Below the pieces are notes generated by a model. The model ran no database searches. It saw only the letters and a program-made list of their open reading frames with translations, and had not been told where the DNA came from. The position numbers were made by a program, and so were the translations under genes. Below, piece by piece: positions 5,745 to 56,979 of a stretch of DNA of 64,000 bases. The stretch is from the NCBI RefSeq assembly GCF_052119425.1, contig NZ_JBQKFH010000011.1:3155-67154 (forward strand). Direction: 5' to 3'. Positions within the stretch are counted from its first letter, which is position 1; every line of letters starts with the position of its first letter. Source of the stretch: Enterococcus cecorum (GTDB lineage: Bacteria; Bacillota; Bacilli; Lactobacillales; Enterococcaceae).

Positions 5745-7133
5745 CTACTCTATGTATCGATAGACCAGTATGTAACGTATTTTATCAGTTTTAGCATCAA
5801 TACTCAAATAAGAATTCACAAAAGGAAGCAAACTCATGATATTTTTTGACGCATCTAAGACCACAATTGCCTGCATTCTTTGTGCTGTCGGCATCTTTTC
5901 GTCAATAAAATACCGCCGAACCTTTTTTGTTAAACTTGCACTTAACGCGATTTTATCCCCAGGTTTTCTCGGGCGTAACGTTAAAACCGGATTTAATTCT
6001 GCCAAAAATTCATGGCGAAATTCTGAGAAATGTTTGACTTTTTTGGGAATTTTTTCCTCCCCTGCGACAAACAAGCCCACCCAACGATTTTCATCAATCA
6101 TGATTGACTCGCCCACTTTGAGCGTGTAGCAAAAATCTTGACTCGTCACTTTTTCTTTTTGACGCGCAATGATTAGCTTGTCTTGGCTGGCTTGAATTTG
6201 CCACTGGTTTTCTACCGAGAGTACAAAAGTAAGGCGCTTCTCGGCAAGTAGGTCTAACACTTGCGCTACATGGGCTTCTTTTAAGGGAATCTGCGCTTTA
6301 AGTGATAAGCGATGAAAAATCCCCTGTAAAGCAAAATAGCGTTTCGCCGGTGTGAGTTGCAAAAAGGGTTCAAGCAAAATCTGATAAGTATCGTACCTTT
6401 GTCTGACAAGTGTATCATACCATGTATCTTGCATTTCTTCCAAGATTTCCTGTAAAAAGTGCAGCTGCTCACCCAAACGCGCCACTTGGTTTAACGCTTG
6501 CGGATTTTCGCCTTTTAGCACTGGCAGTACCTGATGACGCATACGATTACGCGCATAGGCAAGACTTTGATTGGTTTCATCTTCAAAATAGGTTAATCGC
6601 TTTTCGTGCGCATAATCATAAAGTGTCTTTTTATCCGTAAATAGTAAAGGACGGTACAATGGCAAGTCGGTCTCAGGAAGCACACTTTTGGCTTTCATAC
6701 CAGCTAGATTTTGAAAATTACCGTACTTGACTAACTTCATCAGCATGGTTTCCAGTTGGTCATCGCCATGGTGGGCCGTTAATAGACAAGTAAATCCTTG
6801 TGCTTTCATCACTTGGGCAAAATAACGATATCTTGCTTTTCTTGCCTGCGCTTCAAGATTTGTGGTCGTTTTTTCTTGCCAATTTGCCGTAAAGAAAGGT
6901 AATTGGTGTGTTCGGCAATATTCTTTTATAAAGGCTTGTTCTATCGCTGCACTTTCTCTTAGTTGATGGTTAAAATGCACCACCGCCATTGGGATTTTTG
7001 CAAAACATCGCTGCATCAAATCAAGCAAGACCATCGAATCCACGCCACCAGATACAGCAATTAATATCCGATCACCGGGCTTAAAAAAAGCATTTTTTTG
7101 ACAATGTTGATAGAATTGTTTGGCTAAATCCAT
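5745..7133 (-). CDS. tilS: tRNA(Ile)-lysidine synthetase
   Basis: N-terminal PP-loop SGGVDS, synteny with hpt and ftsH. Confidence 0.85.
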
Positions 7134-7159
7134 AGCACACCCCTTTCCTTATTTGGCGA

Positions 7160-7366
7160 CATCACTCGGACTTTCCCGACATTCCGGACAACCTTAGCTG
7201 CTTGGAGCTAATCGACCCGGCTCACATCCTTATAACTCGGCGTTCAACAGCTAGACATTGTGAAGTTCGCCCTCCCGCTTGAGAAAATCCCCTTTCATCC
7301 GATTTTCTCAGCGGTAGGTAAGCACATAAATTTCTTCGAGGCTTTCCGAGCTACTTCACGACCTTA
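7160..7366. repeat. Interspersed intergenic repeat, copy A (EFAR-like modular repeat)
   Basis: Shares modules cggactttcccgacRttcYggacaaMc, ctgcttggagct..gctcacatcctta..cggcgttca and ..cttcacgacc with 19226-19398, 24735-24799 and 48833-48902. Confidence 0.6.
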
Positions 7367-7441
7367 TAATAAAACGAGCATCAATTAAGTCTCGTCTGGA
7401 ATAATGAGTACTTAACTGATGCTTAGAAATAATAATTTGAA

Positions 7442-7873
7442 TTAGCTACGACGTCCGCCACGTCCACCGCGTTTGCCTTCTGTATTGCGGCGTAAAGAAG
7501 CTAGGCGATCATCGCTATCCTTTAAGAATGAACTCATCAGCGCATCGAAGTCTTGCTTAGGTGCATTTTCTTTGCGGCCATTATGATTTTTGTTAAATGG
7601 TTTTTTGTGTGAATGTTCCTTCTTTTCTTCTTTTGGCTTGTCAATTGCTTTACGAATGGATAAACCAATCTTCCCATCTTCGCCTATAGCAGTTACCAAA
7701 ACAGTCACTTCATCGCCAACTTTGAGTACTTCATTAATGTCTTTGACGAAACCATTTGAAACTTCACTAATATGCACTAGGCCGGTTTTTCCCTTTCCCA
7801 AATCTACAAAAGCACCAAAATTGGTAATTCCTGATACTTTTCCTGGTAGTTTTGCTCCAACTTCGATTGACAT
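7442..7873 (-). CDS. S1 RNA-binding domain protein (YabR-like)
   Basis: S1 fold signature (GxV..I..FGAFV); position upstream of tilS as in Bacillus yabR. Confidence 0.8.
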   Translation of the reverse strand: MSIEVGAKLPGKVSGITNFGAFVDLGKGKTGLVHISEVSNGFVKDINEVLKVGDEVTVLVTAIGEDGKIGLSIRKAIDKPKEEKKEHSHKKPFNKNHNGRKENAPKQDFDALMSSFLKDSDDRLASLRRNTEGKRGGRGGRRS

Positions 7874-7937
7874 AAAAAAATAGTTCCTCCTAATATAACC
7901 CTTGTATATAATTCAACGTGACTTGCACGATGGATCC

Positions 7938-8327
7938 TTAATCATTTGAATCGCTAGTCTCCGGCAACACATAAACTAGCTCTCCTTCTTTTGTATAAAA
8001 ATAACGACTTCTAGCAAGTTTACCCACATAGTCATCGTCTTTTAATTGCGCCACTTCTTTTTCTAGAGCAGCCTTTTCTTCCTTAGTCGTTTTATTCTTT
8101 TCCTTTGTTTCTTGTGCGTAAGTCTTTAATTCACGCAAACGCATTTGATCTTTGAAAAGCGCCACACCTGCACTAGCAAACAAAATAAAGGCAATCGTGA
8201 ACAGGAGGGTCAAACGACGTCTGCGAAAGATTAACTGTCGCTGTGTATAGTTAGTGCTTGCATGAAATTGTTTGGTTGCAGCATTATCCAACATATGTAC
8301 ATTATCTTTTTTTGCCTTTTTCAACAC
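7938..8327 (-). CDS. divIC: Septum formation initiator (DivIC/FtsB family)
   Basis: Single TM segment, coiled coil, then the C-terminal YVGKLARSRYFYTKEGELVY motif; synteny yabQ-divIC-yabR. Confidence 0.6.
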   Translation of the reverse strand: MLKKAKKDNVHMLDNAATKQFHASTNYTQRQLIFRRRRLTLLFTIAFILFASAGVALFKDQMRLRELKTYAQETKEKNKTTKEEKAALEKEVAQLKDDDYVGKLARSRYFYTKEGELVYVLPETSDSND

Positions 8328-8455
8328 CCTTGCCTCCTATTGATTCTTTCATACTTGTCAATTATACCAATATCTAAAAACAATGTCTAGATAGCTAAAT
8401 TGAAAGTCAGACAAAAAATAGCCTTCCTCTTTTTTAGAGAAAGACCATTTTCTTT

Positions 8456-8716
8456 TTAAGCTTCTATGCGTTTTTCAGAAAGAATTTCATACATCTTACT
8501 TGCATCTTCTTTTTTTGTAGAATCTTGCAAAGCGAGCACTTTGACTTCAAGCGTTTTATTGCCAAATTGAATTTGCAATACATCGCCGACTTTTAACGTG
8601 CTACTTGATTTGGCTAATTTGCCATTAATTTGAATTCGTCCTTTATCTGCTACTTCCTTGGCAACAGAGCGACGTTTAATGATTCTGGATACTTTTAAAA
8701 ATTTATCTAATCTCAT
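8456..8716 (-). CDS. S4-domain RNA-binding protein (YabO/Hsp15-like)
   Basis: [17 protein letters not shown]4 N-terminus. I re-called the start at the internal Met at 8716; the ORF-track start at 8770 would overlap the upstream gene by 58 nt. Confidence 0.7.
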
Positions 8717-52349: not shown

Positions 52350-53362
52350 TCTTCATACCCCGCTACATCAGCAGTCACACGTTTTCTGAAGATATAGTAT
52401 GTCCAAGCAAAGTAAGCTAAGACAAATGGTAATAAAGTAATTGCGACAATACTCATAATCTTCAAGGTGTAAGGTGTTGAAGAAGCATTCTTAATCAATA
52501 AGTCAAATTTAGAACTGATTGAACTAATCATCACACGTGGGAATAAACCAGTAAATAGTAAAGCCACTAGTGAGACTAAAGTTAAACCACTGGCTAAAAA
52601 GGCTGCTAATTCTTTTCCTTTTAAGACTGAAATATTTGCAAAAACCGTTAATAACACGATTAACACCACTAAAGCTAAAGTTGTTGCAAAGTGTAGTTTA
52701 AAGAAGTCTGTTTGTAAGTATAATAGAATCGCAAATACGACTAAACCTGCGTAAAGTACGTAATATAAAACTTTCGCATAATCGCGCGCACGATGACGGA
52801 TTGGGCCATCTGTTTTTAGCGCGATATAGTTTAAGCCGTGTAAGTAGCAAAGTAAAGTTAAAGCAACGCCACCCACGATAGAGAAAATATTAAAGTAATC
52901 TGTAAAGTGAGCAGTCATATTTCCATTGGCATCTAAAGGCATTCCTTGAATCATGCTGATAAAGATAATCCCAAAGAAGAATGGCACGATAAAACTACCA
53001 ATCGTTAATGTCCAGTTCCAGAAATTCTTTTTACTTGGTTCGACTTTGTGACGGAATTCAAATGAAACCCCACGGATGATTAAACCAAATAAAATCGTGA
53101 ACAATAGTAGGTAATAACCACTGAACAATGAGGCATACCAGAAAGGAAATGACGCAAACATCGCTCCACCAGCAGTTAATAACCAAACTTCATTTCCATC
53201 CCAAACTGGGCCGATTGTCGCAACTAATTGATCTCTTTCTTTTTCATTTTTGGCTAATGTATGCATAGACATGCCCACACCATAGTCAAAACCTTCTAAA
53301 AAGAAATAACCTGAGAATAATACACCAATTAAGAAGAACCATAAAAGTTGTAAATTACTCAT
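52346..53362 (-). CDS. cydB: Cytochrome bd ubiquinol oxidase subunit II
   Basis: Start re-called at MSNLQL (53362), with a GGAGGTG SD inside the end of cydA (ATGAGTAA overlap); polytopic membrane protein. Confidence 0.85.
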   Translation of the reverse strand: MSNLQLLWFFLIGVLFSGYFFLEGFDYGVGMSMHTLAKNEKERDQLVATIGPVWDGNEVWLLTAGGAMFASFPFWYASLFSGYYLLLFTILFGLIIRGVSFEFRHKVEPSKKNFWNWTLTIGSFIVPFFFGIIFISMIQGMPLDANGNMTAHFTDYFNIFSIVGGVALTLLCYLHGLNYIALKTDGPIRHRARDYAKVLYYVLYAGLVVFAILLYLQTDFFKLHFATTLALVVLIVLLTVFANISVLKGKELAAFLASGLTLVSLVALLFTGLFPRVMISSISSKFDLLIKNASSTPYTLKIMSIVAITLLPFVLAYFAWTYYIFRKRVTADVAGYEE

Positions 53363-54797
53363 GAACGGCACCTCCTTCAAATGGATCGACCGGACTTTCT
53401 ACTGCGACTTCTTCTAATTCAGGGCCTTTGCGAACTTCTTTGACCACTAAAGTCACCATCACAGCAGCTAATCCTGTAAATAGTAAGAAGTAAATCGTAT
53501 TAGAAATTAATAATGAAGTAGTAGATACATTTGGTGACACACTATCCATGATGGTAAATACACCATAAACTGTCCATGGATAACGACCTAATTCAGTAAT
53601 TAACCAACCAGTTGTATTAGCTAAGAATGGCGCAAAAGTCGTTAAAGCCATGACCCAAATGACCCAACGTTTCTTAAATAGACTTGGATCTGGTTTTCTT
53701 GTCATCACTAGTCCAACGATTGAAACTAAAAGCATCAATACGCCAAAGCCAGCCATCACACGGAAGCTCCAGAACAAAGCATTTACTGGTGGGTAGAAGT
53801 TCAAATCTTCACCCGTTGATTTTTTGTAAGCTGCTACTTGATCTTTGAAATCTTTTTGGAACTGTTCGTTTAATTCGTTCATCCCTTTGATTTCTTTATT
53901 TGGGTTATTGAAAGCTAAAATCCCTAACATGTAAGGCACTTTCACCCCAAAGACTTCTTGTTTGTTTAATTCATCTGCCCAGCCGACGATGGTCCAAGCA
54001 TTGGTCTTTTCGTAAGCTCCTTCAGTGGCAGCTAATTTCATTGGTTGTGTTTCTACTAAGTCTTTCATTTGTAAGTCCCCAGCAAGTAACACGCCTAATG
54101 AACCGACTAAAGCAACGGTTAACCCTACACGAATAGATTTGCGGTAGAAGTCTTTGAATTTGTCTGTAAGATTTTTGTTGCGTAATAATTGGAAAGCCGT
54201 TAATCCAGCAACAATAATCCCACCCATTGTAATCGCCGCAGTAATGACGTGTGAGTATTCATACCAAGTTTGTGGGTTTTTAATTAAAGCGAAGAAATCA
54301 GTCATTTCCGCGCGACCATTACGTAGTGCATAGCCTGTTGGGTGTTGCATGAACGCATTGGCAATTAAAATCCACAAGGCAGATAACATCGAACCTAATG
54401 TTACCAACCAAATAAAGACTACGTGAAGTTTAGGACTTACTCGCTTCCAAGTAAACATCCATAGTCCTAAGAAAGTTGATTCCATAAAGAAAGCTAATAG
54501 GGCTTCAACAGCTAGCGGTGCACCGAAAATATCACCAACGAATCGAGAATAATCTGACCAGTTCATCCCGAATTGGAATTCTTGAATAATACCAGTAACG
54601 ACACCGACCGCAAAGCTTAGAAGAAAAATATTTCCCCAGAACTTAGCCATCTTTTTGTACATTTCGTCCTTTTTAACAACATACAGTGTTTCCATCACAG
54701 AAATTACTAAAGCGGTACCGATAGAAAAGGGTACGAAGAAATAGTGAAACACTGTTGTCATCGCAAATTGGAAACGTGCTAATGACACAATATCCAT
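53355..54797 (-). CDS. cydA: Cytochrome bd ubiquinol oxidase subunit I
   Basis: CydA conserved N-terminus (FHYFFVPFSIG), Q-loop region; GGAGG SD. Confidence 0.9.
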   Translation of the reverse strand: MDIVSLARFQFAMTTVFHYFFVPFSIGTALVISVMETLYVVKKDEMYKKMAKFWGNIFLLSFAVGVVTGIIQEFQFGMNWSDYSRFVGDIFGAPLAVEALLAFFMESTFLGLWMFTWKRVSPKLHVVFIWLVTLGSMLSALWILIANAFMQHPTGYALRNGRAEMTDFFALIKNPQTWYEYSHVITAAITMGGIIVAGLTAFQLLRNKNLTDKFKDFYRKSIRVGLTVALVGSLGVLLAGDLQMKDLVETQPMKLAATEGAYEKTNAWTIVGWADELNKQEVFGVKVPYMLGILAFNNPNKEIKGMNELNEQFQKDFKDQVAAYKKSTGEDLNFYPPVNALFWSFRVMAGFGVLMLLVSIVGLVMTRKPDPSLFKKRWVIWVMALTTFAPFLANTTGWLITELGRYPWTVYGVFTIMDSVSPNVSTTSLLISNTIYFLLFTGLAAVMVTLVVKEVRKGPELEEVAVESPVDPFEGGAVHE

Positions 54798-55377
54798 TTC
54801 AAATCCTCCAATATAAAATGATTTGCTCGAAAAACTTCAAGCAGTGACGAATAAAGCAAATCTCATCATCAGACATCGGACTTGCTACAAACAAACGGCT
54901 TTTCGCTGTACTCACTTATTTCAAACGGCTTATCAGTGAAATCAACAAAAAGTTTGTCCGAGTGATAAAAATAATGAAAATACATTCACTCTATAGCTTT
55001 ATTGTATACTTTTTTCTTATATTTTCAAAGATTTTATTTCGCACTTTATCATAAGTTTTTATTGAAATATCAAATAAAAAGAACAATTGCTATGTAAAAA
55101 TTTTATCATTTGACCCATTTTCATAAAAATACAAAACAAAAGATATTTTAATGTACGTTATCTATTTTTTAGTTAGAATAATTATAAATTTTATCAACCT
55201 ATCAAATTTATCCCTATTTTTCAACTTTATGAAAATTTAAGATAACATTTATTTATTTTTGAACAGAGATAAACATGTAGATATCAGTATTTAAATAGCA
55301 ACCACGGACATTCTTGTGGGGATTTTCTAGTTCGGGGTGAAGTTTTTTGGTCGATGCCTAGCTATTTTTAAAAAATT

Positions 55378-55490
55378 TGCTATAATGTAGATGAAAGCAA
55401 TCGTCCGTTTTTGACGGTCGCATAGTTATTTAGGCAAAATAGCCGTTCTAACCTCGCGAAAAAATTAAGTTAGAGGAACGGCTATTTTTC
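55378..55490 (+). ncRNA. Candidate small RNA 1: extended -10 promoter TGcTATAAT (55378-55386), a ~100-nt transcript and an intrinsic terminator
   Basis: Conserved core tccgtttttgacggtcgcata plus the GC-rich hairpin aatagccgttctaac...gttagaggaacggctattttt. Paralogous to 55585-55724. Confidence 0.45.
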
Positions 55491-55493
55491 TTG

Positions 55494-55541
55494 CCTTATT
55501 TTCCATATTTACACAAAAACCAGAGAATAAGTCCCTGGTTT
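55494..55541. repeat. 48-bp direct repeat copy 1 (hairpin AAAACCAG-N11-CTGGTTTT); also found at 56022-56069
   Basis: cttattttccatatttacacaaaaaccagagaataagtccctggttt versus ctattatttcccatatttacacaaaaaccagagagcaagtccctggttt. Confidence 0.6.
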
Positions 55542-55584
55542 TATAGTTGTAAAATTAAAAAAAATCGACAAATAAAAAAAAGTA

Positions 55585-55724
55585 TGCTAGAATACAAATG
55601 AAAAGAGGGACTGCTGGTACAATCCCCCTTATCAGAGATAGTCCGTTTTTGACGGTCGCATATTTATACTTGGCAAAATAGCCGTTCTAACGTAGCGAAA
55701 AAGTTAGAGGACGGCTATTTTTTC
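55585..55724 (+). ncRNA. Candidate small RNA 2 (paralog of sRNA 1): extended -10 TGcTAGAAT (55585-55593), a ~125-nt transcript and an intrinsic terminator
   Basis: Same core gtccgtttttgacggtcgcata, and the hairpin aatagccgttctaac..gttagaggacggctattttttc. Its 3' end converges on the peptide gene at 55757-55834. Confidence 0.45.
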
Positions 55725-55756
55725 TTGCCATTGTTGCCTAGGATTAAACCTATGAT

Positions 55757-55834
55757 TTAGATCACTAATGATAGCGTACCAAAAATCACCGCAACTACGA
55801 TTGAAATAATCGCAATAATGTCGCTGGCTGACAT
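55757..55834 (-). CDS. Unannotated 25-aa hydrophobic peptide (MSASDIIAIISIVVAVIFGTLSLVI), candidate type I toxin
   Basis: AAAGGAG SD 10 nt upstream of the ATG; a single predicted TM helix; convergent with sRNA 2 across its terminator. Putative minus-strand promoter TGaTAGAAT (plus coordinates 55926-55934). Confidence 0.4.
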   Translation of the reverse strand: MSASDIIAIISIVVAVIFGTLSLVI

Positions 55835-56021
55835 GAAAGCAAATCTCCTTTCTGATAGATTTTGCATAAGCACCACCTACTTCCAGTTGAATTTGCAACC
55901 GCCATAACTGCATATCTCAAAACTTATTCTATCACAAATTAATTTTAAATAAGAACAGAAATACCCCAATCATTTTCTCTTTTTTCGCTATATAATTTCA
56001 CTTAATTTTGAGAATTTTATC

Positions 56022-56069
56022 TATTATTTCCCATATTTACACAAAAACCAGAGAGCAAGTCCCTGGTTT
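56022..56069. repeat. 48-bp direct repeat copy 2, which doubles as the LysR-gene terminator
   Basis: See copy 1. It ends exactly at the LysR stop codon. Confidence 0.6.
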
Positions 56070-56979
56070 ATTTTGATGGATGAAAATGTTGTAAATAGTC
56101 TTTCAGTCGCGTCAAAAAGCTTTCCGCCATATCTGAAAGGACACGGTCTTTTTGATGAATCGCAATTAACTGACTTTTCGGCGCATTGGCTAGCGGAATC
56201 AGTAAAATCCCCTGCGAAGGCCCATCTTCTACCAAGCCAGAGCCAGAACCATAGGCATTTGTGCGTGTTAAGATACCGGTTAATGTCGCGCGGTCAGAGG
56301 CGTGAATGACCTGCACCACCTCTGGAAAATCCAATAAATCCTCTGAAAAATAAGTATAATGGTCACTTTCTTGTGAGAAACGGATTTGCGGATAAGGCAT
56401 TAAATCATCTAAGGTAATCTCTGCTTTGGTCGCTAAAGGATGATTTTCACCTAAAAAGATATGCGTTTGAAACTCATGCAACACCTCATAAGTCAGCTCA
56501 CTAGCCTTAAACATCCGCTCTAAAGCTACTTTATTGGAAGCATTCAGATATAAAATACCCAATTCACTACGATATTCTTCCACATCTTTAATCACGCTCA
56601 AAGTCGTATTTTCGTATATGCGGAAAGATTCACACTCTGGAAAATCCTGAATCATCTCGCTTAGAATAATAGATAAGAAATCATAGTGCTGACTGGCAAT
56701 CGAAAAATGCTTGGTATGATCGCTTTTCGTGGCATAACGATTTTCAAGCAACTCCACTTGCGATAAAATTTGTTGCGCATATTGGAAAAAATCGCTACCT
56801 TCTTTAGTCAGATAGGCCCCTTGACTCGTGCGTTCAAATAGTTGCACATTTAATTCTTGTTCTAATTCTTTAATCGCATGGGACAGACTCGGTTGCGATA
56901 CATAGAGTTTTTTGGCTGCTTCTCGAAAACTCCCATTATTCGCAATCGCCGTCACATAACGCATTTGTTGAATATTCAT
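56068..56979 (-). CDS. LysR-family transcriptional regulator
   Basis: N-terminal HTH (MNIQQMRYVTAIANNGSFREAAKKLYVSQPSLSHAIKELE) plus a substrate-binding domain. Confidence 0.85.
   Translation of the reverse strand: MNIQQMRYVTAIANNGSFREAAKKLYVSQPSLSHAIKELEQELNVQLFERTSQGAYLTKEGSDFFQYAQQILSQVELLENRYATKSDHTKHFSIASQHYDFLSIILSEMIQDFPECESFRIYENTTLSVIKDVEEYRSELGILYLNASNKVALERMFKASELTYEVLHEFQTHIFLGENHPLATKAEITLDDLMPYPQIRFSQESDHYTYFSEDLLDFPEVVQVIHASDRATLTGILTRTNAYGSGSGLVEDGPSQGILLIPLANAPKSQLIAIHQKDRVLSDMAESFLTRLKDYLQHFHPSK

Follow-up and report, generated by a model that had tools for sequence, protein, structure and literature searches.

Type I toxin-antitoxin modules join the mRNA of a hydrophobic open reading frame (ORF) to a separately promoted antisense RNA, and one class of them, RatA/rli28, takes in the txpA/RatA, bsrH/bsrE and "holin-like toxin" modules. 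In Bacillus subtilis, the txpA/RatA, bsrH/as-bsrH and bsrE/SR5 systems have toxin mRNAs of 255-294 nucleotides (nt) and antitoxins of 160-220 nt, which overlap at their 3' ends by 100-140 nt (PMC6562991, PMC3531473). On Listeria plasmids rli28 is paired with RatA around a BsrH-like toxin (pLM80; PMC9484302), and in Enterococcus faecalis the TxpA-like EF3263, of 27 amino acids (aa), has been validated together with ref40/ref46, a 3' antisense RNA of ~110 nt (PMC2887945, PMC3074167). Here we describe a locus of this kind from Enterococcus cecorum. It lies in a stretch of 64,000 nt of contig NZ_JBQKFH010000011.1 (hereafter the window, with positions counted from its first letter), in the spacer 54798-56067 between cydA (53355-54797, minus strand) and a LysR-family gene (56068-56979, minus strand). 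Our literature searches returned nothing on type I systems in E. cecorum or on the peptide family concerned.

With a probability of about 80%, we read this locus as an ordinary selfish element: a type I toxin-antitoxin module of the RatA/rli28 class that sits in the chromosome and is preserved in the window as a partly decayed copy. A first-pass annotation, made from the sequence alone, had proposed a type I-like locus here. Homology bears this out, as a RatA/rli28-class module, but the toxin is truncated and the locus is not par/Fst-like. The promoters, cores, terminators, ORF and Shine-Dalgarno (SD) sequence that it listed are all present where it had placed them.

Layout and homologues of the module

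Two predicted transcripts, a minus-strand mRNA with a hydrophobic ORF and a plus-strand small RNA (sRNA 2) with its own promoter, face each other in the spacer, with ~130 nt of predicted complementarity (Table 1). The comparison with txpA/RatA made at first pass holds, as the sRNA is convergent with the toxin gene and the predicted 3' overlap is as in the B. subtilis systems. The parallel drawn with par RNAI/RNAII does not: the peptide has no Fst-family Pfam match, the window has no par-related Rfam match at E <= 10, and the complementarity lies at the 3' ends only.

Against Rfam rli28 (RF01492, gathering threshold 45 bits) the window scores 37.3 bits (E = 0.022) on the minus strand, 55752-55941, over the full model (1-186), and against RatA (RF01776, gathering threshold 49 bits) 23.5 bits (E = 6.6) on the plus strand, 55590-55680. 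Both matches are below threshold, but their strands and order are those expected of such a module. A chain of homology runs from the window to modules L044 and L050, from these to L066 and L060, and from there to the E. faecalis plasmid pE509-2 (NZ_CP086562.1), which carries the annotation "putative holin-like toxin." The rli28 and RatA scores are 44.2 and 34 bits in L044, 52.4 and 45.9 bits in L050, 52.4 and 41.6 bits in L052, and 143 and 58.4 bits in pE509-2; two further modules sharing the same RNA chassis, L066 and L058, score 81 and 93 bits for rli28. By its sequence relationships the sRNA of the window would belong to RatA by transitive homology only.

Searches of the cores and the peptide against genomes and RNA families, as suggested at first pass, found the module conserved, with its parts co-occurring. 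Relatives encoding a 41-aa peptide stand in conjugative-element-like contexts, among relaxase, TraG-like, RadC, Replic_Relax and ImmA-like genes, and are 77-78% identical to the window from the toxin promoter to the sRNA promoter, ending exactly there, a unit of ~340 bp. Degenerate core patterns scanned against metagenomes and IMG/VR gave mostly chance matches, the useful ones being L058, L060, L064, L065, and L066. An exact 18-mer core scan of genome contigs gave 33 matches, of which L037 and L041 alone are real and the others chance; a pattern of this kind is so strict that it misses relatives, and so short that it lacks specificity. The window module (55560-55960) had no blastn match among plasmids and phages, and enterococcal plasmids were reached only via the Hol_Tox-type relative L066.

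Comparison of L060:1330-1770 and L066:280-720 with L044:2885-3274 shows a near-identical 5' end and 3' ~150 nt around unrelated coding cassettes. In L060 and L066 the cassette encodes the 27-aa peptide MSVYEALSLMIAFATLIVLVNNKDNKK, a Pfam Hol_Tox match at 38 bits (threshold 23.3), and in L044 an unalignable 41-aa peptide. This pattern indicates that toxin cassettes have probably been swapped by recombination within one RNA chassis.

The same comparisons bear on the simplest alternative, that the plus-strand units are mere terminators or leaders of neighboring genes and the small ORF arose by chance. Intergenic hairpins with T-tracts are indeed common, and the spacer does contain a true duplicated terminator (D1, below). 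However, the units have no plus-strand gene upstream and carry conserved extended -10 elements of their own; Rfam places its matches on the strands expected; and the unit as a whole, ORF included, keeps its 77-78% identity in unrelated contexts, with a ratio of nonsynonymous to synonymous change (dN/dS) far below 1. A terminator-only explanation is already contradicted by these comparative data, and we regard it as exceedingly improbable.

Three further sequences from these searches deserve mention. L064, an unrelated metagenomic contig whose 5' end has a truncated tRNA match, carries a RatA-like sRNA of 37.5 bits at 1800-2000 with the toxin ORF reduced to a 10-codon remnant, and is another orphan antitoxin. 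L058, an IMG/VR contig classed as viral, has a Hol_Tox-type rli28/RatA module at 6700-8502, ~1.1 kb from a tmRNA gene, a position consistent with an element integrated at ssrA. The RatA-like region of pE509-2 (L088:1595-1693, minus strand) weakly matches Rfam Ref66, "Enterococcus sRNA 66" (32.6 bits, threshold 92), which hints that some cataloged enterococcal sRNAs are antitoxins of the RatA class. Ref35B, a non-coding RNA antisense to ef2062 in E. faecalis V583 (PMC3074167), was considered as a prior mapping of the spacer and dropped, the window being E. cecorum.

The putative toxin gene and its truncation

In the window the minus-strand ORF has 25 codons and encodes MSASDIIAIISIVVAVIFGTLSLVI. 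This peptide was taken as complete at first pass; its ORF, SD sequence and promoter stand, but it is a truncated allele of a 39-aa gene. Most strains have CAA where the window has TAA (55757-55759), and there the product is MSASDIIAIISIVVAVIFGTLSLVIQIIGLILGNNGKKK, a long hydrophobic segment followed by a GNNGKKK tail. The 39-codon frame is intact in L001, L002, L004, L005, L010, L037, L041, L065, and L078-L087. The nonsense allele is also found in L003, L008/L076, and L077, and this recurrence, in at least three independent samples, means that it is no sequencing error. It looks like a minority form, with the linked 69-aa ORF (below) on three contigs and the intact peptide in 52 blocks of the collection, counts that are not strictly comparable.

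Codons 1-33 have evolved under purifying selection: the window lineage differs from two others at a dN/dS of 0.10 and 0.23, and those two from each other at 0.03, and third positions account for 18/29, 12/22, and 8/9 of the differences in the three lineage pairs. A random distribution of synonymous and nonsynonymous changes, named at first pass as a reason to doubt the ORF, was thus not seen. Codons 26-32 (QIIGLIL), beyond the premature stop, encode identical protein despite six synonymous changes, and because the tail codons are under selection in relatives the window allele is a derived truncation. The truncated toxin is probably disabled, since it has lost 14 residues from its end, the positively charged tail among them.

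The module might nevertheless still work in this strain, with the 25-aa peptide toxic and held in check by sRNA 2 and sRNA 1; we consider this unlikely. The peptide has a hydrophobic span of 20 residues and nearly the length of canonical toxins (27-30 aa), Hol_Tox toxins on the same chassis have just 27-28 aa, the promoter, SD sequence, start codon, clamp (below) and antitoxin of the window are all intact, and the recurrence of the allele across samples also counts in its favor. Yet relatives conserve the deleted part, QIIGLILGNNGKKK, strongly, all their changes in it being synonymous; canonical short toxins retain a charged C-terminal tail, which the 25-aa product does not have; and independent loss of the toxin elsewhere, by deletion and TnpB insertion, suggests relaxed or negative selection on it.

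An upstream in-frame AUG (55865-55867, minus strand) would give 50-52-aa forms (P0005, P0006; for example MQNLSERRFAF-). It lies within a hairpin of the 5' untranslated region (UTR) and is found in every module type examined (L044, L050, L066, L058). Compensating indels make the N-terminal extension differ from one lineage to the next (RFAF versus SLLL), and it overlaps the SD sequence; for both reasons we favor the SD-proximal start. Found by folding and by RNAalifold, a small local hairpin pairs part of the SD sequence with the CUUUC directly ahead of the AUG; of the SD sequestration in the folded 5' UTR that the first-pass annotation had envisaged, it is this partial pairing that we recovered.

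Contrary to the earlier view that nothing of the module is annotated, the 39-aa form is deposited as E. cecorum hypothetical protein RBR29257.1, adjoining cydA RBR29256.1, and the 50-aa form carries the UniRef name "Holin-like toxin." The family is very small: a profile search of 1.84 billion representative proteins returned three related clusters only, the E. cecorum 39-aa form, the 41-aa P0007, and the 52-aa P0006 from Candidatus Streptococcus faecavium, which contains the 41-aa sequence (the query for homologous proteins was the 39-aa form padded with one extra K). None of the 25-, 39-, 41-, 50-, and 52-aa forms reached the threshold of Pfam PF16935 Hol_Tox (>=23.3 bits) or matched it even at E <= 10, and PADLOC defense-protein models had no match for P0001, P0006, and P0007. 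Weak matches of the peptide to DUF4190, CCC_membrane and TatA reflect hydrophobic composition and were rejected as having no family meaning.

This isolation could be taken to mean that the peptide is no toxin but a harmless small membrane protein controlled by the antisense RNA, for instance a membrane-complex modulator like the ComI-/YhzE-type peptides. It falls outside every toxin family searched, the nearest NCBIfam model for the chassis-sharing 27-aa peptides is competence inhibitor ComI, and YhzE-2 is non-toxic despite a type I-like layout (Fozo et al., PMC2887945). The RNA chassis is, however, common to bona fide holin-like toxin modules via cassette exchange, paralogs reside on mobile elements, and the gene has been inactivated repeatedly while the antisense RNA was always kept, a toxin-like pattern. 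A non-toxic role therefore seems to us very unlikely.

The predicted toxin mRNA and its 5'-3' clamp

The minus-strand RNA from ~55920 to 55595 folds with a minimum free energy at z = -8.4 relative to shuffles, and its 5' end pairs with a 3' segment in a long helix (the clamp; arms in Table 1). RNAalifold recovered this helix on eight modules. Its 19 pairs are 98.7% paired, versus 27-48% when the partners are slid; two are compensatory (AU/UA 4:4; UA to CG), and the covariation score was reached by 1/500 shuffles. Across seven lineages, including L058 and pE509-2, the clamp is predicted at -24 to -34 kcal/mol with arm sequences that differ: GAGAUA/UAUCUC, GUGAUAGG/CUUAUCAC, GAUAGC/GCUAUC, and GUAGAA/UUCUAC.

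Because the clamp is conserved, the toxin mRNA most likely runs beyond the bidirectional hairpin between the two genes, which on the minus strand has a weak U-run only and in L044 none. Its most likely end, by structure prediction, is the distal hairpin at 55630-55603, so that the mRNA would cover all of sRNA 2, with an overlap of ~130 nt. This hairpin, absent from the first-pass list, is complementary to the 5' hairpin of sRNA 2, lies right against the promoter of that sRNA, and is present in all homologues despite sequence change. The stretch of complementarity takes in the last five sense codons and the stop codon of the 39-codon frame. The convergent layout with 3' ends overlapping in antisense, as first proposed, is thus retained, but the overlap is not just the terminator and probably extends over the whole of sRNA 2.

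The putative antitoxin RNAs

The 64 kb contain just two copies of the 21-nt core TCCGTTTTTGACGGTCGCATA, at 55404 and 55642, against 0 matches in shuffles even with three mismatches allowed. The units around these cores are direct repeats (55400-55504 and 55638-55738, with blocks 91-93% identical), and each ends in a long GC-rich hairpin with a U-tract; a simple terminator scan missed both hairpins because their loops exceed 8 nt and are outside its reach. The predicted RNAs fold at -33.5 kcal/mol (sRNA 1, z = -3.8) and -40.6 kcal/mol (sRNA 2, z = -3.6), and align over ~86 nt with six mismatches and three indels, including perfect runs of 22 and 20 nt.

sRNA 2 shows the RatA architecture: a 5' hairpin (55603-55630), a CCGUU-UUU-GACGG hairpin (55643-55655), and a terminator (55672-55727), convergent with the toxin gene. 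In an 11-sequence alignment the 5' hairpin is present in every sequence though its letters change freely, the CCGUU-NNN-GACGG hairpin is invariant (5-bp stem), and the terminator has two compensatory pairs. The extended -10 of sRNA 2 (TGcTAGAAT, 55585-55593) has counterparts in the homologous modules, where the antisense -10 with its TG is kept.

Unit 1 is built differently: it has no 5' hairpin, its own -10 lies directly upstream, no toxin gene follows, and its terminator leads straight into D1a, a copy of the LysR terminator region. It is a second, toxin-less antitoxin copy that arose by duplication and recombination, redundant or a relict. The two sRNAs of ~100-125 nt proposed at first pass are therefore backed by promoters, cores, terminators and folds, with the qualification that unit 1 has no toxin partner.

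Strain variation at the locus

Ten contigs chosen solely for an identical LysR sequence reveal how variable the site is, with the caution that allele frequencies come from small, partly query-biased samples. The two-unit layout is found with an intact toxin in four of the ten and with the nonsense allele in two. One (L010) has a single unit-1-type sRNA with an intact toxin and is a unit 1/unit 2 recombinant; another (L009) has unit 1 only, the toxin being absent and exactly the D1-D1 interval missing. The remaining two (L006, L007) have one RatA-like sRNA and no toxin, followed by a Phd/Fic/type I restriction-modification island. In these (L006:3312-6312, L007:2972-5972) Phd/YefM, Fic and HsdM replace the cydA-proximal sequence, corresponding to the window left of ~55559, a hot spot for insertions. 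A related genome, L041 (91-96% identical), carries a ~1.85-kb insertion (L041:891-2745) with a 429-aa TnpB/IS605-OrfB-like ORF ~7 nt downstream of the predicted toxin transcription start site (window ~55912), which cuts the intact 39-aa ORF from its promoter.

Every variant keeps at least one sRNA, and in none is the toxin found without an sRNA. This asymmetry, with the sRNA always kept and the toxin lost, is the one predicted by toxin-antitoxin logic. It could also mean that the retained sRNAs, above all unit 1 and those of the sRNA-only alleles, have a job of their own, either anti-addiction against toxin mRNAs of conjugative elements or trans regulation of other mRNAs. The sRNA copies in all structural variants, including three toxin-less ones, related toxin modules on elements in E. 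cecorum itself that resemble integrative and conjugative elements (ICEs), and the orphan RatA-like sRNA of L064 are all in keeping with such a role. On the other hand, the ICE modules are only ~78% identical and differ in the invariant-hairpin loop (UUUAA versus UUUUU) and the 5' hairpin, the likely recognition elements; an antitoxin outlasting its toxin is also expected from neutral decay; and no target was identified. We judge an independent role improbable.

Features of the spacer and its neighbors

The host is E. cecorum and not, as assumed at first pass, E. faecalis: LysR (WP_171312088.1), CydA (RBR29256.1) and the 39-aa protein match E. cecorum records exactly, and the protein cluster that contains the glutathione reductase of the window has E. 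cecorum names only.

Table 1. Positions of the module elements and flanking repeats in the window.
Feature	Position	Strand	Remarks
Extended -10 of unit-1 sRNA, TGcTATAAT	55378..55386	plus	Same -10 kept in single-unit strains, e.g., L010
sRNA 1, ~105 nt	55393..55495	plus	Orphan RatA-like antitoxin copy; ends predicted
D1a	55496..55541	none	46-nt copy of LysR terminator region; 93% identical to 56024-56069
sRNA 2 promoter (TCGACA, 17 nt, TAGAAT, TG extension)	55565..55593	plus	Promoter scan, 10/12 matches plus TG
Toxin mRNA, ~320 nt, rli28-like (predicted)	55597..55918	minus	From the start site after TGaTAGAAT to the distal terminator
sRNA 2, ~128 nt, RatA-like antitoxin	55600..55727	plus	Fold, Rfam RatA, 11-sequence alignment; ends predicted
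Distal hairpin then UUUUCAUUU, predicted toxin-mRNA terminator	55603..55630	minus	Terminator scan, 12 pairs
Clamp 3' arm	55635..55660	minus	Complement of the conserved sRNA core
Ancestral 39-codon toxin frame	55715..55834	minus	TAG 55715-55717 inside sRNA-2 terminator stem
Truncated toxin ORF, 25 codons	55757..55834	minus	TAA 55757-55759 from C-to-T in codon 26
Shine-Dalgarno sequence GAAAGGAG	55845..55852	minus	10 nt before ATG; invariant in alignment A2
Clamp 5' arm	55894..55918	minus	RNAalifold consensus, pair counts, duplex in 7 lineages
Extended -10 of toxin mRNA, TGaTAGAAT	55926..55934	minus	-35 poor; equivalents TGTTATAAT, GGGTATAAT in homologues
D1b	56024..56069	none	LysR terminator, right-hand module boundary; LysR stop at 56068 directly adjoins

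The D1 repeats bound exactly the segment that is missing from strain L009. D1a forms a hairpin with T-runs on both strands and would stop transcripts in either direction.

The spacer was first described as having no ORF longer than 60 aa. This is literally incorrect, since an ORF of 69 aa (55704-55913, minus strand) runs across the toxin gene in a different frame, and several public assemblies list it as a gene. We rejected the 69-aa ORF as a real gene because its frame is closed in the homologous modules, and regard it as an annotation artifact.

Two features lie nearer to cydA. Two 23-nt direct repeats, CAAACGGCTT(T/A)TC..., stand 30 nt apart at 54892-54944. Lying ~100-150 nt ahead of the cydA start and unrelated to the toxin-antitoxin module, they may serve as a cyd operator. 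The terminator scan also flagged a small hairpin, TGCTTGAAGTTTTTCGAGCA, with a T-rich run after it, at 54824-54843 (minus strand) in the 5' leader of cydA, ~27 nt ahead of the start codon; this may be a leader structure of that gene. For the regulatory contribution to the cyd operon suggested at first pass we found no evidence at this locus.

Discussion

From the known systems and the structures above we can propose how the module would have worked before its decay. An mRNA of ~320 nt (about 55918 to 55597, minus strand) would once have encoded the 39-aa membrane peptide, and the clamp helix between its 5' end and 3' segment would keep it closed. Transcribed from a near-consensus extended promoter, the sRNA would be in excess over the mRNA. 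First contact would be made by loop-loop pairing, for which the loop of the invariant hairpin, fitting a YUNR U-turn motif, is a candidate; a duplex of ~130 bp would then zip up in competition with the clamp. This duplex would direct RNase III-dependent decay, perhaps with refolding near the ribosome-binding site, and the peptide would not be made. The scheme is transferred by analogy from txpA/RatA, bsrE/SR5, and bsrG/SR4 (PMC6562991, PMC3531473).

Several points weigh against a RatA/rli28-class module. Both RNA elements of the window fall below the Rfam gathering thresholds, and the peptide has no curated toxin family match in Pfam Hol_Tox, NCBIfam or PADLOC; toxicity is presumed for the members of its family. 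The E. cecorum promoters, transcript ends and relative promoter strengths are predictions. The clamp covariation is modest evidence, coming from a close family of three lineages only. The hairpin at 55675-55721 is followed on the minus strand by a short U-run, AUUUUGCC, where some toxin transcripts may stop, in which case the overlap with the sRNA would be only ~55 nt. As to partial decay, a 25-aa hydrophobic peptide could be membrane-active even so.

With this locus the RatA/rli28 class gains a previously unstudied species, the poultry pathogen E. cecorum, together with a toxin peptide that is new and very rare. It also offers, at one chromosomal site, a natural series of intact, nonsense, promoter-disrupted, deleted, and antitoxin-only alleles, with which one could test whether chromosomal modules are kept by selection or simply decay. 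Cassette exchange in a conserved chassis and a family-wide 5'-3' clamp are testable ideas on how type I modules diversify. Nothing here upsets current understanding or would surprise a specialist. A further idea is a long shot: that retained RatA-like sRNAs, as in unit 1 and the sRNA-only alleles, give immunity against related toxin modules arriving on conjugative elements, and that the clamp/antitoxin chassis is a platform for swapping in unrelated toxin cassettes that escape such immunity.

Comparison with known systems

Like the par system of pAD1 (fst, RNA I/RNA II), the window module is convergent, with a shared bidirectional terminator and a small hydrophobic enterococcal peptide; par, however, uses 5' direct repeats for interaction, whereas here the interaction surface is the whole 3' overlap. 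In hok/sok, found on enterobacterial plasmids and chromosomes, the full-length toxin mRNA is held shut by a fold-back of its 5' and 3' ends, the target of the antisense RNA is the 5' leader (mok), and 3' processing activates the hok mRNA; chromosomal copies have often lost function through point mutations, deletions or insertion sequences. The window module resembles hok/sok in an mRNA closed by 5'-3' pairing and in decaying chromosomal copies, while its RNAs and peptide are unrelated, its antisense lies at the 3' end, and we saw no evidence for activating 3' processing.

The B. subtilis systems are nearer. Their 3' overlap fits the ~130 nt predicted here, and both sides have a small hydrophobic peptide and an association with mobile or prophage DNA; the window sRNA, in contrast, is shorter (~128 nt), the peptide is unrelated, and the mechanism is shared by analogy only. 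EF3263 is, like the window module, an enterococcal chromosomal TxpA/RatA-type system with an antisense RNA over the toxin 3' end, and its drm1/drm2 direct repeat, present as a single copy in some strains, resembles the one- and two-unit alleles described above, although species, locus and toxin peptide differ and the two were compared by description only.

The rli28/RatA holin-like modules of Listeria and E. faecalis plasmids differ from the window in that here the RNAs are sub-threshold, the toxin is a 39-aa non-Hol_Tox peptide, truncated in this allele, the site is chromosomal between housekeeping genes, and there is an extra orphan antitoxin. What they share with it is the same order and strands, with the toxin mRNA convergent with the sRNA; a stop codon that adjoins the sRNA terminator; and the clamp, the CCGUC-NNN-AACGG element, and the distal hairpin abutting the sRNA promoter.

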